64,000 nucleotides of DNA from positions 64,001-128,000 of the forward strand of contig CAVXWP010000009.1 in the NCBI GenBank assembly GCA_963765495.1, given 5' to 3'. The notes under the pieces were generated by a model. It made no database searches. It had not been told where the DNA came from and worked only from the letters and a program-made list of their open reading frames with translations. Positions 4,428-63,843 of this stretch are shown piece by piece. This stretch comes from Blastocatellia bacterium. GTDB lineage: Bacteria > Acidobacteriota > Blastocatellia > UBA7656. The translations under genes were made by a program, and so were the position numbers. Numbering within the stretch: the first letter of the stretch is position 1; every line of letters starts with the position of its first letter.

Positions 4428-4555
4428 AAGGATGAAGGATGAAGGATGAAGGATGAAATCGGATGTCGGGCATCACTCTTTCATAAAGAGTGAACCGTTT
4501 TTATCAGGATTAAACAAAACATGTTTTCATCCTTCATCCTTCATCCTTCATCCTT
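4428..4555. repeat. Palindromic heptamer-arm element A1: (AAGGATG)4 ... (CATCCTT)4
   Basis: Perfect 31-bp inverted arms at 4428-4458 and 4525-4555; internal hairpin TCACTCTTT-CAT-AAAGAGTGA at 4473-4493. Confidence 0.95.
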
Positions 4556-4570
4556 CCGAGGATCTGAGAG

Positions 4571-5431
4571 TTGGAGCCTATATCGCATTACTATTATTCT
4601 CACCGGCTGAAGCTGCATTTCTGGGACTGGGGGCAAAACGGGAAGCCTTCACTGATCCTCGTCCACGGAGGGCTGGACCACGCGCGAAACTGGGACTGGG
4701 TGGCGCGCTGCCTGCGCGAAGACTTTCACGTTTACGCGCTGGACCTGCGCGGGCATGGCAATAGCCAGTGGGCACCGGGCGCGCTCTACTCGATAGCCGA
4801 GCACGTGCTCGATCTATCGGCGCTTGCCGACATCATAGACGACTTTCCCCTCTACCTCGTAGGCCATTCGCTTGGCGGCGTCATCGTTTTGCTTTACTCA
4901 GGGATATACCCGGATCGGGTGCGCAAGGTAGTCTCAATCGAAGGGCTTGGGCCGCCGCCCAGACACAGGGTATTCGCCCCGGCATCTGAACGAATGCGCG
5001 GGTGGATCGAAGCTATCAGAAACACCGAGAGGCGCGAGCCTCACAGTTATCCTGATCTGGAAGCGGCGGTAGCGCGGATGAAAGAAGCCAACCCGCATCT
5101 GTCGGACGAGGTGGCTCGGCATCTGACGCTGCACGGAACAAACTGGAATGCGGACGGCTCGCTGATATGGAAGTTCGACAACTATGCCCGCCCGTTTGCG
5201 CCCTACGGTCACAACATGGAAGACCTGGGCGAAATACTGGGGCAGGTAAATTGCCCGACCCTTCTGTTTTGGGGGATGGAAAGCTGGTCCGCAGACCCCG
5301 AGACCGACGGACGCGCGGCGCGGCTCAAGGATTACCGTCTGGTCAAAGTACCCCGCGCGGGCCACTGGCTGCACCACGATCAACTCGATATATTTCTTGA
5401 TGAAACAACCCGCTTTCTCAGAGAGGATTGA
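4571..5431 (+). CDS. Alpha/beta fold hydrolase
   Basis: HGG oxyanion motif, DLRGHG, nucleophile GHSLGG, catalytic His in AGHWLHHD; TTG start. Confidence 0.88.
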   Translation: MEPISHYYYSHRLKLHFWDWGQNGKPSLILVHGGLDHARNWDWVARCLREDFHVYALDLRGHGNSQWAPGALYSIAEHVLDLSALADIIDDFPLYLVGHSLGGVIVLLYSGIYPDRVRKVVSIEGLGPPPRHRVFAPASERMRGWIEAIRNTERREPHSYPDLEAAVARMKEANPHLSDEVARHLTLHGTNWNADGSLIWKFDNYARPFAPYGHNMEDLGEILGQVNCPTLLFWGMESWSADPETDGRAARLKDYRLVKVPRAGHWLHHDQLDIFLDETTRFLRED

Positions 5432-5453
5432 CAGGATTTCTCGTGATCCTGTC
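5430..5453. terminator. Hairpin between convergent stop codons (resembles a minimal family-F element)
   Basis: GACAGGAT-N8-ATCCTGTC touching both stop codons. Confidence 0.5.
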
Positions 5454-6181
5454 TAACCGCTCCGGTTTTCTAAAAGGAACTGCAAAGATTGATCGGGACT
5501 GTATTCGACCGCTTCCTTACCTTTCAGGAATATCCGCGTCTGCTTATTGCCCAGCAATTCAATTTTTGAGCCTTCGATCTTCAGGATACTGCCTTCTCTG
5601 AGTCCGACGACATAGACGCCGGGGTTGGCCTCGATGTATTCGAGCAGGCGCTCTTCTCTGGTTTCGCCCTGATGTTGGGGCGTGTGAAAATCGGTGTAAT
5701 GAGGATTGATCTGAAACGGCACAAGGTCAAAAGCGCGGAAGCTGCGCGGCTGAACTATGGGCATGTCATTGGTCGTCGAAATGGTTGGGCAGGCAACATT
5801 CGACCCGGCGCTCCAGCCTATATAAGGCAAGCCGTCTGAGACGCGAGCGCGTATGATTTCAATCAGGTCTCTTTCATAAAGCTCGCGCAAAAGGTGAAAA
5901 GTGTTGCCTCCACCCACGACTATGGCTTCGGCGCGACCGACAGCATCTTTCGGGTCGCCCGCTACGTGAATCGATTCCAGGTCGTATCCCATCTGCTGAA
6001 GCCTGTCGCGCACTCCCGAGGCATAATCGTCAAAAGACATACGCACACCGGCAAAAGGGATAAACAGGATTTTCTTGATTTGTTTGCCCAGAAAGCTTTT
6101 TATCGCGGCCTCCGCGTGCGCCAGATAGCCCTCGCCGTAATTCTTTGAATTGCTCAACAGCAGTAATCTTCTACTCGACAT
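5453..6181 (-). CDS. pepE: Dipeptidase E (peptidase S51)
   Basis: LLLLSNS, VGGGNTF, GWSAGSNVACPTISTTNDMPI, PFQINPHY, HQGETRE. Confidence 0.93.
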   Translation of the reverse strand: MSSRRLLLLSNSKNYGEGYLAHAEAAIKSFLGKQIKKILFIPFAGVRMSFDDYASGVRDRLQQMGYDLESIHVAGDPKDAVGRAEAIVVGGGNTFHLLRELYERDLIEIIRARVSDGLPYIGWSAGSNVACPTISTTNDMPIVQPRSFRAFDLVPFQINPHYTDFHTPQHQGETREERLLEYIEANPGVYVVGLREGSILKIEGSKIELLGNKQTRIFLKGKEAVEYSPDQSLQFLLENRSG

Positions 6182-6226
6182 TGAGCCAATTATAGCCGCA
6201 AAAAGCTGAGAATAGAACGTTATGCG

Positions 6227-61448: not shown

Positions 61449-61516
61449 TATTTTCAACACAGTCTTTCATAATTAGAGACACGCCCCGGTTTTTATGGTA
61501 ACATCCAGGCTGTAGC

Positions 61517-61658
61517 GGCGCAGGTGCCGGTCCGGCGGCTGCCGACACACCGGAGTCTTTGATCTTCTTTCGTCAGCCCCCGTAAAAAATAGCACCCGCT
61601 GAGATTCGAGCCTTGAATGCTCAGGTTTCAGCCCTGTTTCGGCGCTTAACCTTGCGCC
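61517..61658 (+). ncRNA. Putative 6S-like RNA (rod-shaped hairpin)
   Basis: End-to-end pairing GGCGCAGG/CCTTGCGCC, GTGCCGG/TCGGCGC, GGCTG/CAGCC; extended -10 TGGTAACAT at 61496-61504. Confidence 0.45.
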
Positions 61659-61757
61659 CTCGAAAAAGTTGGGTTAGGCTGCTTTCGGCCCTGAACTGAG
61701 ATGATTGTTATTGAATCGAGACTCGATCACCGGCTGAGGCAAATAGAGGGAAATCAC

Positions 61758-63671
61758 ATGACAAGCAGAATCTTACTCGCTGACGACAGCATAACCATAC
61801 AAAAGGTTGTGAATCTCACTTTTGCCGACGAGGGGATAGAAGTGGTTTCGGTCAGCAACGGAGAAATGGCTGAACGCAGAATGGGTGAAATCAACCCCGA
61901 CCTCGTGCTTGCAGACATATTCATGCCGGGCAAGAACGGATACGAGTTGTGCGAGTACATAAAAGAAAGCTCTGAATTCCACGACGTGCCGGTTGTTTTG
62001 CTCGTAGGCGCTTTCGAGCCTTTCGATCAGAGCGAGGCTCGGCGCGTCCGCGCCGACGGCCATCTTACCAAGCCGTTCGAAACGCGAACCCTGGTTGAAA
62101 CGGTTCGCAGTCTCATAGAGAAAAACGCCAAACCGCAAACCGATAGTCTCGCTTCGCTGCCGCCGTCAAGAAATGATGATCGCGAGGGCGAGTCGCCCGA
62201 AAAGCCTTTCGAAGCCGGAGCGATCAAGACGCCCCGCTTAAACATAGACCTTTCAGCCATGACCGATTCCTGGACGCCGCAGGAGACAGCCGAATTGCGC
62301 GGAAACGAGAGCGCCACAACCTCCACTATGGATGCGTTGAACGATGCTTCCCCGCTCGATATCGATTATTCCATGCCGTCATCGTCCGACACGGAATTCT
62401 CCGGGTTTGAGACCCGAACCCAGCAATCGATGGAGACTGTTGAGTTGTCGTCGCTGATTGAGGATGATTCGTTTCCACACGGTCAGACTTTAGAGATGAA
62501 CGTCTCGACTCAAACCGAGCCCTCTTATCTGGACGCGCAAAACAACACCGATAGCGGACGGCTCAATCTGCCTGTGAACAATTCTGCGCTTGATGCCGAA
62601 GAGAACCACGAATGGGAGGAGCGACGGATTACCTCGCCTCTCGAACCCGACTTTGGCGATGAAGGCATGGTTTTGGATTTCGAGAAGGTGGACGAACCCG
62701 ATTCCCACCAGCCGGAAAATATTGTCTCTTTCGATCTTGAAACCGAGCCGCCATCCAAACAGGCGAGCGGTGTTGAACCCGGCTTCGCCACACAAGAGTC
62801 GAATGAGTACGGCAATCAGCAGATTGTGGAACCCGAAGCGGTTATTGCAAGCGACGAATCGTCTCAGCAACAGACAGGGTTTGAGTTGAGTTTCGATACA
62901 AACACGGGATATTCGGGTGAGAGAGCAGCATCCTTTGCCTCCTCTTCACTGTTTACCGACGAAGAGCCTCTGGGCGACCTGATCGACATGGATAAGGCGC
63001 AAGAGATGGCTGCCGGTCAGGAAGAAGGGCGGGTTTTTGAGGTGTTGCCTGCTGCGGAGGCGAGCCTTTCCGGTCTGAATGAACAATACTTAGCGGGTTC
63101 CGAAGACGCGGGGAGCGAATCTTTCACCACAGACTCCGGGTCGGAGCCATCGAAGGAAACGTCTCTTGAGGCTAAGACGGCCTCCGCCCCGGCAGATGAA
63201 AAAATCGGATTCACTACACAGGAGATGGCGACTCCAGATCACCGAGAGTTTATATCGGGCACGCTTCTTGGCTCGACCTCTCCTTTTGAAATTGTCGAAC
63301 CGGAAGCGGAGCAGAAGGAAGCCGATACGGTCGAGCAGTTCAAGTCTTCTGAGATGTGGACCGAAGAAGAGATGCACTTTACGCCTATCGACATTGAAGA
63401 CGCGCCTTTGGGCGAGGAACCGGCATTTCATCATTCGCCGGGCGCGACAGAGTCCGAGCAGGAATTCACATCGTCGGGCGCGCATATGTCAGCCGACAGG
63501 CCCACCCGAGCGGCGGATATGTCACCGGATCTCCTCGACGAGATAGTGCGCCGCGTGGTGGCCGAGATCAGCGATTCGGTCGTGCGCGAAATAGCATGGG
63601 AAGTCGTGCCCGATTGCGTCGAGCGGGTAGTCGAAAAACTGGCGCGCGAGTCCCTGTCCAAACGCATTTAG
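61758..63671 (+). CDS. romR: RomR-like response regulator (receiver, acidic disordered linker, RomR-C helix)
   Basis: LADDSITIQKV, LADIFMPGKNGYELC, PVVLLVGAFEPFD, KPFE; C-terminal VVREIAWEVVPD. Confidence 0.78.
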   Translation: MTSRILLADDSITIQKVVNLTFADEGIEVVSVSNGEMAERRMGEINPDLVLADIFMPGKNGYELCEYIKESSEFHDVPVVLLVGAFEPFDQSEARRVRADGHLTKPFETRTLVETVRSLIEKNAKPQTDSLASLPPSRNDDREGESPEKPFEAGAIKTPRLNIDLSAMTDSWTPQETAELRGNESATTSTMDALNDASPLDIDYSMPSSSDTEFSGFETRTQQSMETVELSSLIEDDSFPHGQTLEMNVSTQTEPSYLDAQNNTDSGRLNLPVNNSALDAEENHEWEERRITSPLEPDFGDEGMVLDFEKVDEPDSHQPENIVSFDLETEPPSKQASGVEPGFATQESNEYGNQQIVEPEAVIASDESSQQQTGFELSFDTNTGYSGERAASFASSSLFTDEEPLGDLIDMDKAQEMAAGQEEGRVFEVLPAAEASLSGLNEQYLAGSEDAGSESFTTDSGSEPSKETSLEAKTASAPADEKIGFTTQEMATPDHREFISGTLLGSTSPFEIVEPEAEQKEADTVEQFKSSEMWTEEEMHFTPIDIEDAPLGEEPAFHHSPGATESEQEFTSSGAHMSADRPTRAADMSPDLLDEIVRRVVAEISDSVVREIAWEVVPDCVERVVEKLARESLSKRI

Positions 63672-63843
63672 TAGGCAGTAAGCGGTAGGCAGTAAGCAGT
63701 TTGTAGTAACGGAGGCACATGCCAACTATTCATATTCATACCCTGGCTAGACATTCCCGACCCTATTGCTCTGGTCTTGATCGTCAGCTTACCGCCTACT
63801 GCCTACCGCCTACTGCCTACTGCCTTCTGCCTACTGCCTTCTG
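63669..63843. repeat. Palindromic heptamer-arm element C2, inverted copy of C1
   Basis: TAGGCAGTAAGCGGTAGGCAG ... (CTACTGC)n; begins at the romR-like stop codon. Confidence 0.95.

Follow-up and report, generated by a model that had tools for sequence, protein, structure and literature searches.

Heptamer-armed hairpin elements at gene ends of a Blastocatellia genome: probable ORF-less relatives of rRNA intervening sequences

Introduction

Eleven intergenic loci in a 64,000-nucleotide stretch of contig CAVXWP010000009.1 of a Blastocatellia bacterium (the window) are built from tandem units of seven nucleotides. Their form and their placement next to stop codons raise the question of what kind of element they are, how they reached their sites and what tolerates or keeps them there. 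The original prediction considered them non-autonomous members of a mobile or RNA-processing system, with four-helix-bundle genes as candidate autonomous partners. Here the loci are compared with the remainder of the genome, with related genomes and with published repeat systems.

Results and Discussion

Elements of the window

Period-7 arrays were found at all eleven places, both by Tandem Repeats Finder and by direct reading. The predicted arm-spacer-arm architecture is present at ten of the eleven loci (the one at 54197 with just about two units per arm), and one locus is a solo arm:

4428..4556, no strand assigned: AAGGATG-armed hairpin element, 68-nt core; arms 4428-4457 / 4526-4556
8711..8755, no strand assigned: solo array of GAGATTT/GAGTTTT/GAATTTT units, 6.4 copies (Tandem Repeats Finder)
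11831..11944, no strand assigned: AGGGATG-armed element, 70-nt palindromic core; arms 11831-11845 / 11916-11944
13313..13407, no strand assigned: GATGCGT-type element, 37-nt core; arms 13313-13339 / 13377-13407
16224..16333, no strand assigned: degenerate GATGCGT-type element, 25-nt core; arms 16224-16261 / 16287-16333
18778..18907, no strand assigned: AGGGATG-armed element, 71-nt core; arms 18778-18807 / 18879-18907
46307..46423, no strand assigned: GATNCGT-type element with CGTGATT units; arms 46325-46350 / 46405-46423
51105..51258, no strand assigned: AGGCAGT-armed element, 86-nt core; arms 51105-51137 / 51224-51258
52414..52527, no strand assigned: GATGCGT-armed element, 46-nt core; arms 52414-52443 / 52490-52527
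54197..54273, no strand assigned: short-armed GATNCGT-type element, about two units per arm (read by eye)
63670..63843, no strand assigned: AGGCAGT-armed element, 89-nt core; arms 63670-63700 / 63790-63843

Arm boundaries are those of Tandem Repeats Finder. With a unit mismatch of at most one as the definition of a strict inverted pair, eight loci of the window qualify (4428, 11831, 13313, 16224, 18778, 51105, 52414 and 63670). The pair at 46325-46350 / 46405-46423 passes a looser test and is absent from the strict list; the 54197 element, whose arms GTGATCCGTGATT and AATCACGCATCAC differ by one mismatch, was not called by the strict pipeline. The solo array at 8711 has no partner arm, and its family is mostly solo. 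None of the window elements contains an ORF.

The prediction that most loci start at a stop codon or no more than about 20 bp from one holds. Degenerate units extend the 4428 element backward as far as the TAA that ends ORF 1159-4407. The 11831 element directly follows the TAA of ORF 10827-11831, and 13 nt separate its end from the ATG at 11958. Convergent ORFs flank the elements at 13313 (11958-13310, plus; 13391-14167, minus), at 46307 (45289-46302, plus; 46437-47732, minus) and at 16224, where the arms contain both called stops. A fold of -91 kcal/mol is predicted for the RNA of the 18778 element, which separates two minus-strand genes: it follows the TAA of 18908-19906 with 0 nt between them and leaves 20 nt to the start of 16685-18757. 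The right arm of the 51105 element contains the stop of 51251-52501 (minus), the 54197 element follows the stop of ORF 52569-54194 by 3-4 nt, and the 63670 element adjoins the stop of ORF 61701-63671. The 52414 element is located upstream of ORF 52569-54194 in a start-start (divergent) gap.

A genome-wide class with constant polarity

In the whole genome we counted 480 strictly paired elements, plus about 180 whose partner arm is short, in a metagenome assembly in which misassembly of repeats is possible; 470 short elements make up 0.73% of the 7.3 Mb of this Pyrinomonadaceae-like soil genome. Tandem Repeats Finder returned 1641 rows of period 7, compared with 239 of period 6 and 301 of period 8, and among 613 neighbouring array pairs at most 600 bp apart 480 were inverted and 4 direct (at most one unit mismatch). 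These counts place the heptamer elements far beyond chance. At least five unit groups are present, of which GATNCGT is the largest with about 217 of the 470 short elements. Mosaic and nested arrangements and inverted pairs occur, as in REP-like repeats.

The constant polarity across families that had been predicted was confirmed: the left arm is the G-rich one in 475 of 480 pairs and the C-rich one in three, with two ties. Among the 796 arrays that lack a pair, a short partner lies where this rule predicts in 179 cases and on the wrong side in two, and around TIGR02436 genes from many genomes 42 of 45 distinct units follow the rule as well. Arms have a median length of 29 nt. In a sample of 80 elements the fold energy was -0.48 kcal/mol per nt, compared with -0.23 for shuffled sequences.

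Spacer families, recent copies and empty sites

The spacers had been described as unique, which proved wrong. The 51105 and 63670 cores are homologous, in opposite orientation, and genome-wide the spacers form clusters of 76, 45, 25, 21 and 13 members (55, 43, 17, 11 and 9 under stricter clustering), with 248 singletons that have no detectable relative; the 51105 core belongs to the second-largest family (43-45 members). Core-family copies occur in both orientations (365 and 347 hits). A twin at least 90% identical exists for 104 elements and one at least 95% identical for 31, and three 113-nt cores are 98% identical, with unrelated flanks and different arm lengths. Since near-identical copies differ in arm length, slippage acts on the arms, as had been proposed; arm copy number changes faster than the core mutates. 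A single core family is found with several arm units.

At four gene ends, relatives without the element retain the native stop. The end orthologous to the 4428 locus is empty in G012 and G005 and carries a different heptamer pair in G001; the 11831 element is absent from G001 after the same stop codon, the 13313 element from G005 and G012 with the stop unchanged, and the 18778 element from G005, again with the same stop. These comparisons of filled and empty sites cover the four gene ends and a 23S rRNA site and are made across genera, not strains. Presence or absence varies at orthologous sites. Matches to three GATGCGT units number 397 in the present genome (G000) and 320, 111, 60 and 33 in four genera, with zero in 18 of 30 relatives. 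The predicted lack of a target-site duplication extends to the whole genome, where direct repeats at 442 elements equal the shuffled control. Recent copying has taken the elements to new sites and left no target-site duplication.

If microsatellites had expanded independently in terminator hairpins that already existed, without a common origin, this would account for the differing arm lengths of near-identical copies and for the weak correlation between left and right arm lengths (rho 0.16). However, core families have 90-100% identical copies at unrelated loci, complementarity between the flanks beyond the arms does not exceed that of shuffled pairs, and orthologous sites are empty in relatives. 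We regard such independent growth as extremely improbable; spacer clustering and polarity refute it. The original prediction was to be given up if spacers did not cluster, empty sites did not exist and polarity was random; instead, all three findings were the opposite. Spacer families, empty sites and one-way polarity support the view that the loci belong to a dispersed system of non-autonomous repeats that has spread recently.

Placement and the regulatory alternative

Between the upstream functional unit and the element lie 0-5 nt. Arms start a median of 1 bp from the stop (quartiles -5 to 6, n = 466 sides), and 85 of 113 convergent gaps have both stops at most 15 bp from the arms. The rule persists in 78 elements that have 60 nt or more of free space towards the start, where a median of 0.8% of the free space is on the stop side; genes were called greedily as longest ORFs and start-side distances are rough. 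Young copies obey it too. The midpoint of 95 elements falls within a called ORF, and of the 25 ORF-internal elements listed most are explained by over-extended starts of the ORF calls. Ten of the 95 are deep inside ORFs and in frame. All ten belong to the stop-free CCGGGGG family, whose units are of the GGGGNCN type (10 of 36 elements, compared with 0 of 434 others), and none of the window loci is placed in frame inside a protein-coding gene.

Such tight placement could indicate hairpins that serve the host and are kept at gene ends by selection, their mobility being incidental, a reading to which we give a minor but real chance. The elements might then stabilise mRNA like REP/BIME sequences, terminate transcription in both directions or, as proposed for Xanthomonas, switch as G-quadruplexes; we consider this set of functions similarly doubtful. 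Arrays occupy 21% of convergent gaps, and the occupied gaps (median 112 bp, compared with 82 bp for gaps without arrays) barely exceed the element, as if it replaced the usual terminator. In Xanthomonas, the repeats are frequent start or end points of transcripts, and loci are conserved between two species (PMC4692102). Against this, no T-run follows the stem (T is 0.17-0.31 of the bases at +1 to +8 of the right flank), and the elements are therefore not canonical intrinsic terminators; moreover, 240 elements separate genes on the same strand, a setting that requires read-through. G-tracts are missing from most units (GATGCGT, GAGTTTT, AGGCAGT), most unit groups are unable to form a G-quadruplex, and this structure thus cannot be their common property. 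Copies are also present in rRNA, tRNA spacers and ORF interiors, and unit families appear and vanish between genera.

Cassettes with TIGR02436 genes

The link drawn in the original prediction between TIGR02436 genes and flanking heptamer arms is borne out. All four TIGR02436/PF05635 genes ('23S rRNA intervening-sequence protein') of the genome are enclosed by arms, and arrays were found at 24 of 29 and 17 of 20 sampled loci of relatives; at least one arm is present at 51 of 76 sampled relatives of the gene. Each gene has its own unit (GGGGCCA, GAGTTTT, AGGGATG, GGATTTT), and each of these unit families also includes short elements. The four proteins are divergent, with 15-21% identity to the first of the set in an alignment. 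XCC0516 (2GSC) is the closest solved homologue (E 2.6e-26), and its start is overlapped by a GGGAATC array (table in Rehm 2015, PMC4692102).

From these findings the short elements could be mobilised in trans by the four-helix-bundle proteins, which we consider unlikely; that each protein recognises its own heptamer unit, like a transposase and its MITEs, seems to us just as unlikely. The largest family, GATNCGT, has no gene-bearing copy here or among 49 cassette loci of relatives, and AGGCAGT has none in the genome. No similarity was found between cassette interiors and short cores, and one core family is shared by several arm units. The four-helix-bundle fold has no known catalytic activity, which also counts against mobilisation in trans. 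The proposed role of these genes as autonomous partners is thus partly contradicted. TIGR02436 was the only cargo found between arms. No enzyme linked to the elements was found among the Y1 transposase hits: neither of the two PF01797 hits has flanking heptamer arrays, and the strong one bears its own hairpins without heptamer arms.

Insert in 23S rRNA and the preferred reading

Both 23S rRNA genes carry an ORF-less, GAGTTTT-armed insert of about 108 nt in the hairpin loop at positions 1206-1226 of the Rfam LSU model, which we take to be helix 45 from the E. coli flanking sequence. It was not found in seven of nine relatives with the region assembled, one of which has 97% identical flanks. Elements also fill a tRNA-Ile/tRNA-Ala and a tRNA-Ser/tRNA-Ser spacer, leaving 2-5 nt. 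The genome carries an RNase III gene, and excision of intervening sequences by RNase III is established (PMC8708148, PMC4990558).

The most probable interpretation, in our view, relates the elements to rRNA intervening sequences: they lack ORFs, have been mobile recently and probably form hairpins cut by RNase III. They likely constitute one class, in which tandem G-rich 7-mers, a core of 25-115 nt and complementary C-rich 7-mers follow each other, and of which the window loci are ORF-less members. The same class presumably provides the 23S insert, the fill of the tRNA spacers and the brackets of every PF05635/TIGR02436 gene. An element of this kind would be co-transcribed with the upstream gene and would fold into a perfect stem of roughly 30 bp, which RNase III may cut as in rRNA intervening sequences or which may at least act as a 3' or intercistronic hairpin. 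It would persist where the transcript tolerates a hairpin or a cut: just after stops, between tRNAs, in an rRNA loop or, if the unit is stop-free, in frame. A point against this interpretation is that tolerance alone does not explain arms 0-5 nt after the stop despite free downstream space.

Comparison with known systems

The elements are not wholly new, and the claim that arm-spacer-arm heptamer families are undescribed was mistaken. Convergent heptamer arrays near stops are known from Xanthomonas (Rehm 2015, PMC4692102), with 70-75 convergent inverted GGGAATC pairs per genome. The account describes GGGAATC arrays in X. campestris and X. axonopodis and GGGGA(C/T)T arrays in Nostoc/Anabaena; the Xanthomonas arrays are mostly of about four 7-nt units, intergenic and transcribed, with the G-rich strand sense just after stops (some overlapping them) and antisense upstream of starts (PMC4692102). 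The present elements share the tandem 7-nt units in few copies, the convergent arrays with the G-rich strand inward and the position near or overlapping the upstream stop. In contrast to Xanthomonas, where the single unit of each genome is interpreted as a G-quadruplex motif and loci are reported to be stable and unlinked to mobile DNA, a G3 tract occurs here in AGGGATG and GGGGNCN only, and dispersed core families, recent copies and copies in rRNA, tRNA spacers and ORFs are present; spacer families, rRNA copies and a PF05635 link go unremarked in the excerpted Xanthomonas account (PMC4692102).

The REP, BIME and REPIN sequences of proteobacteria are also short palindromes outside genes, repeated hundreds of times after stops or in operons and often in inverted pairs; REPINs are associated with a RAYT (Y1) transposase that REPs flank (PMC3116915). 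Unlike REPINs, the arms described here are tandem 7-mers of many sequences. Neither a target-site duplication nor ends shared with an autonomous transposase element, as in MITEs, were found in this genome, the sole cargo being TIGR02436, with no common internal sequence. The STRR heptamer repeats of cyanobacteria, reportedly described by Mazel et al. in 1990, are likewise intergenic tandem heptamers with several unit families per genome. So are the TAACTGA direct repeats (MacGregor 2015, PMC4679880); both are described as direct arrays, often upstream of starts, and inverted pairing, cores and polarity do not figure in the excerpted descriptions.

The ten in-frame CCGGGGG-family elements resemble Rickettsia palindromic elements in this habit, which here is limited to one stop-free family. 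Rickettsia palindromic elements are palindromic repeats tolerated in frame within protein genes.

Intervening sequences are extra stem-loops of 100-450 nt with an optional PF05635 (S23p) ORF, located in helices 25 and 45 of 23S rRNA (Salmonella, Campylobacter, Coxiella, Leptospira; PMC8708148, PMC4990558), and the present class is similar. We found no literature on intervening-sequence stems as heptamer arrays or on elements of this type at hundreds of mRNA sites. The window loci differ in being intergenic, outside rRNA, and without a PF05635 ORF in the loop, which four elements elsewhere in the genome possess. In the organism's own 23S genes, a heptamer-armed member occupies the presumed helix-45 site and is patchily distributed among relatives.

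Heptamer-armed elements in the window and in the genome

The observation of heptamer-armed elements is real and strong. Tandem Repeats Finder (TRF) and direct reading of the sequence gave period-7 arrays at all window loci named in the original prediction, and the arm-spacer-arm build claimed for ten of the eleven loci was found in ten, once weakly. In the strict pipeline, TRF rows of period 7, 14 or 21 were merged, and neighbouring arrays at most 600 bp apart were paired if their units were reverse complements with no more than one mismatch. Eight pairs resulted in the window, in which no Rfam family reached its gathering threshold.

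Heptamer loci of the window
4428-4556: inverted pair, strict pipeline
11831-11944: inverted pair, strict pipeline
13313-13407: inverted pair, strict pipeline
16224-16333: inverted pair, strict pipeline
18778-18907: inverted pair, strict pipeline
51105-51258: inverted pair, strict pipeline
52414-52527: inverted pair, strict pipeline
63670-63843: inverted pair, strict pipeline
46307-46423: pair by the looser partner test
54197-54273: short-armed locus, about two units per arm
8711-8755: solo array, no partner arm

The assembly (G000; 7.30 Mb, 17 contigs, 54% G+C) contains 1641 TRF rows of period 7; periods 6 and 8 have 239 and 301, respectively. The genome-wide scan for inverted arrays that the original prediction had suggested returned 480 inverted and 4 direct pairs among 613 neighbouring pairs (at most one mismatch). 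Elements with a spacer of up to 200 nt number 470 and occupy 52,936 bp (0.73% of the genome). Among 796 unpaired arrays, a short partner (12 nt, at most one mismatch) is present on the side predicted by the polarity in 179, on the other side in 2 and on both sides in 1, which puts the real total of elements closer to 660. By unit, the 470 elements comprise GATNCGT (206, plus 11 GATCCGT grouped under ‘other’), ARGGATG (62), GRRTTTT-like (61), AGGCAGT-like (54) and GGGGNCN (47), the remaining ‘other’ being 29. The window stretch was matched in one sequencing run, a soil metagenome (DNA), with no RNA run among the listed matches.

Arrays of the GAGATTT type are mostly unpaired, with 122 solo arrays of four related units (window 8711-8755; C1:1010365, C1:794376, C1:981364), many of which are followed by one reverse-complement unit and a conserved stretch starting AAATCTCAGATGRGCGCGTGTGAA. 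These solo arrays look like a separate repeat family.

Anatomy and polarity

The 466 elements with a spacer of at most 150 nt have a median arm length of 29 nt on each side and a median total length of 107.5 nt. In the best ungapped alignment the arms are complementary at a median of 92% of positions, and perfectly so in 24% of elements; left and right arm lengths correlate weakly (Spearman 0.16). The predicted RNA folding energy of 80 sampled elements is -0.48 kcal/mol per nt compared to -0.23 in shuffles, and the element at 18778 has a predicted fold of -91 kcal/mol. Right flanks lack a T-run and left flanks show only a mild excess of A, which indicates that the elements are not canonical intrinsic terminators.

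The left arm contains more G than C in 475 of 480 elements, less in 3 and equal amounts in 2. Because an inverted repeat is identical on both strands, this polarity belongs to the element itself and does not depend on the chosen strand: the G-rich arm comes first, whichever strand is transcribed. A clean inverted pair is also present at 66 of 134 TIGR02436-gene loci of this and other genomes, and in their 45 distinct units the left arm is G-rich in 42, C-rich in 2 and tied in 1. The polarity rule is independent of the unit sequence. Reversed polarity was seen in an almost spacer-free CAGCCAT/ATGGCTG pair of a relative (L118, G001:C29:3375-3425), at the orthologue of the gene end at 4407, and around a TIGR02436 gene of another relative (L148, G013).

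Stop codons in all frames were considered as the cause of polarity. Most major units of G000 have TGA or TAG on the G-rich strand, but GGGGNCN and many units of relatives keep the polarity without such stops, and this was therefore dropped as a general rule. Our guess is that the polarity avoids Rho: if a C-rich, G-poor arm were the first to emerge, it would load Rho as naked RNA, while the observed order would pair the C-rich arm immediately. Alternatively, the polarity could be a consequence of how the arms are synthesised.

Core families and recent copying

The spacers (cores), described as unique in the original prediction, in fact form families. All-against-all BLAST yielded clusters of 76, 45, 25, 21 and 13 members besides 248 singletons, and a stricter cut gave 55, 43, 17, 11 and 9. 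Matches were in the same orientation in 347 cases and in the opposite one in 365, so that a core can lie either way between its arms. A single core family was found with GATGCGT, CGTGATT, AGGCAGT and CCGGGGG arms; arms and cores are not strictly linked. Twins of at least 90% identity over at least 70% of the spacer exist for 104 elements, and of at least 95% for 31. The 113-nt cores at C10:96951, C9:594450 and C7:726009 are 98% identical, are embedded in unrelated flanks and have 2.4 to 4.6 units per arm, which shows that copying to new sites was recent and that the arms slip faster than substitutions accumulate. AGGGATG cores are palindromic, with compensatory types at 5 of 11 predicted pairs, and no consensus fold emerged for the two largest core families.

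The absence of target-site duplications, also part of the original prediction, holds genome-wide: 442 elements with defined stem ends do not differ in distribution from shuffled flank pairs. The idea that elements inserted into hairpin loops already present was rejected, flank complementarity beyond the stem being no higher than in shuffled pairs. An origin by deletion, as for MITEs, was rejected as well, the interiors of the cassettes (elements with a TIGR02436 gene between the arms) having no matches to short cores, and so was a RAYT-like partner.

Longer ‘spacers’ are nested mosaics of multiple modules. A palindromic module (AATAGGCC ... CGCGGAT-type units of 7-9 nt) occurs at window 23087-23155, C8:194436-194773 and C9:271012-271381, alone or nested in heptamer-armed elements, and gives BIME-like mosaics. 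An IS200-type Y1 transposase gene outside the window (C9:13619-14083) has its own CCCCGCAGC hairpins without heptamer arms and is apparently inserted into another mobile-element gene.

Position relative to genes

Genes were called by our own greedy longest-ORF procedure (5904 ORFs, 89% coding), which over-extends starts; 95 elements have their midpoint within a called ORF, and start over-extension explains most of the 25 listed. The elements lie in 133 minus-minus, 107 plus-plus, 113 convergent and 31 divergent contexts, compared to background gaps of 1932, 1981, 988 and 986, respectively. On the 466 stop-facing sides the median stop-to-arm distance is 1 bp (quartiles -5 and 6), and on the 302 start-facing sides the median distance is 28.5 bp. 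Both stops are within 15 bp of the arms in 85 of the 113 convergent gaps, and the median convergent gap is 112 bp with arrays, hardly above the element itself, versus 82 bp without. The abutment does not result from lack of room since, in 78 same-strand gaps with at least 60 nt free on the start side, the stop side takes a median of 0.8% of the free space. Slow erosion of the flanks could bring arm and stop together, and arm slippage that outpaces core substitution is in its favour; as the sole cause it is weakened by the young copies, which are already at the stop (median distance 0, 101 sides). In the stop-free GGGGNCN family the stop codon is often TAG, the G of which is the first arm base.

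CCGGGGG-family elements are located at least 150 nt inside long ORFs in 10 of 36 cases, compared to 0 of 434 for the other families. These copies are read through in frame as GPGAGGRGP...PAPGPRPPAP, and by TRF bounds their length is divisible by three in 7 of 10.

C-rich arms and cores have no stops when read towards the downstream gene (as at window 11835-11957 and 52444-52501), which causes longest-ORF calling to add false N-terminal extensions to downstream genes; ORF 11835-13310, with a likely true start at 11958, is an example. For annotation, the elements thus matter as providers of both stop codons and such extensions.

Copies in rRNA and tRNA regions

Both 23S rRNA genes (C7:680743-683875 and C7:378989-382121, with five differences between them) contain an insert of about 108 nt that has GAGTTTT arms and no ORF. 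It occupies the loop of a hairpin that lies at positions 1206-1226 of the Rfam LSU model and that we assign to helix 45 by the surrounding E. coli sequence, GAAGCU on one side and GGUAGGGGAGC on the other. A DNA query was used to find the site in nine relatives with the region assembled. Seven of them lack the insert, one being G002, whose flanks are 97% identical. G025 belongs to another family of the class and carries, at this site, an insert of a different kind of about 190 nt (L159, G025:C54:640-815), bounded by TTGAGATCTCA inverted repeats and without clear heptamer arrays; in the ninth relative, G016, the match starts downstream at a contig end and does not cover the site. Compared to the Rfam model, the 23S gene of G000 on C7 (L149) is also expanded by smaller stretches: inserts of 16 and 25 nt around positions 280-310, 13 nt at about 583 and 33 nt at about 1257. 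In both rRNA operons the tRNA-Ile/tRNA-Ala spacer is filled by an AGGGATG element that leaves 3 and 5 nt, and an AGATTTT element between two tRNA-Ser genes leaves 4 and 2 nt. Given copies in 23S rRNA, tRNA spacers and ORFs, insertion is not restricted to gene ends; selection removes copies that break a gene.

Orthologous sites in relatives

At four gene ends of the window the stop codon is conserved in relatives and the element begins 0-3 nt past it in G000. The comparison of filled and empty sites proposed in the original prediction revealed empty orthologues at all four. The end of ORF 1159-4407 is empty in the relatives G012 and G005 and has a different heptamer pair in G001; that of ORF 10827-11831 is empty in G001, that of ORF 11958-13310 in G005 and G012, and that of ORF 18908-19906 in G005. 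Three consecutive GATGCGT units (at most two mismatches) gave 397 matches in G000, 320, 111, 60 and 33 in four other genera and none in 18 of the 30 relatives searched; the reversed control gave 0-1. Unit families bloom patchily.

PF05635/TIGR02436 cassettes

All four TIGR02436 matches in G000 are situated between inverted heptamer arms, each with a different unit, and among ORFs enclosed by the same arms, which the original prediction had proposed to list, TIGR02436 genes are the only clear cargo. The four proteins match PF05635 and, weakly, Avd; the other three are 15-21% identical to the first. Three of the four cassettes abut the upstream called stop. For one of the proteins the best solved homologue is XCC0516 (PDB 2GSC, E 2.6e-26). 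Relatives' loci were searched with the family model and a single protein, the four-protein alignment being too divergent. At least one array adjoined the gene in 24 of 29 loci of a first sample (both in 13), both arrays were present in 17 of 20 loci of a second, and 51 of 76 cross-phylum relatives of one protein had at least one array (both in 19). The interpretation in the original prediction was mostly right, except for the absence of precedent discussed below and for the four-helix-bundle genes, whose role as autonomous partners is conjectural. Eight reverse-transcriptase (PF00078) matches are present in G000 (C2:555493-558553, starts of C8 and C9), several of them at contig ends.

Proposed mechanism

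The elements are a dispersed, recently copied hairpin repeat without target-site duplications, with slippage-prone arms of one polarity. They abut the 3' boundary of the upstream functional unit, and their design is common to the 23S insert of G000 and the PF05635 cassettes. We assume that they are transcribed together with the upstream gene: transcription has to pass through them in same-strand gaps, and immediately beyond the arm the downstream genes retain ribosome-binding sites of their own. The transcribed elements would fold into stems of about 30 bp, which may be substrates of RNase III by analogy with 23S intervening sequences, described as such in two publications (PMC8708148, PMC4990558); an RNase III gene is present in G000. 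Elements would presumably persist where a cut or a stable hairpin is harmless.

An alternative that we consider very improbable is that the arms arise not by slippage but by templated, telomerase-like reiterative copying of a 7-nt template by a host reverse transcriptase, with an Avd-like PF05635 pentamer as cofactor. Hairpin RNA would then be copied back into DNA where a transcript first lies bare, i.e. directly past a stop codon, between tRNAs or in exposed rRNA loops. If true, this would jointly explain the 7-nt period and the G-to-C polarity (42 of 45 unrelated units), would account for the missing target duplications and the 0-5-nt abutment to functional units, and would unite rRNA intervening sequences, the heptamer repeats of bacteria and PF05635 in a single retro-element system.

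Relation to known repeats

Contrary to the original prediction, which saw no precedent for such pairs, convergent inverted heptamer pairs have been described in Xanthomonas. Rehm et al. 2015 (PMC4692102) reported heptameric G-rich arrays in Xanthomonas and Nostoc, preferably of four units, on the sense strand and at most 50 bp from a stop codon or overlapping it, with 70-75 convergent inverted pairs in each Xanthomonas genome, and interpreted them as G-quadruplex motifs at stable loci. In a table of that paper array 15 is located six nt past bccP (XCC0517) and overlaps the start of XCC0516; the paper does not comment on this overlap with a PF05635 homologue.

The element kind is known but unexplained. 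What is new, and what makes this a good system for experiments, is the combination in a single genome of a census over several families, dispersed cores, and copies in rRNA, at tRNAs and within ORFs. Our literature search found no paper that links heptamer arrays to PF05635 genes or intervening sequences, or that reports core families. Novelty may be affected by a 2008 study by Elhai, which reportedly treats heptamer repeats as well as small dispersed repeats. The same design and polarity rule apply to hundreds of gene ends, helix 45 of both 23S genes, tRNA spacers, in-frame copies and every PF05635 gene of G000. Should this unity hold, intervening sequences would simply be those copies of a general hairpin element that reside in rRNA, and G-first polarity, stop abutment and the 7-nt period would be concrete properties that any mechanism must explain and that reporter assays can test. 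Three old puzzles converge in this genome: why bacteria have an excess of heptamer repeats (cyanobacterial STRRs and the ‘G4’ repeats of Xanthomonas), where 23S intervening sequences come from, and what the very large PF05635/TIGR02436 family does.
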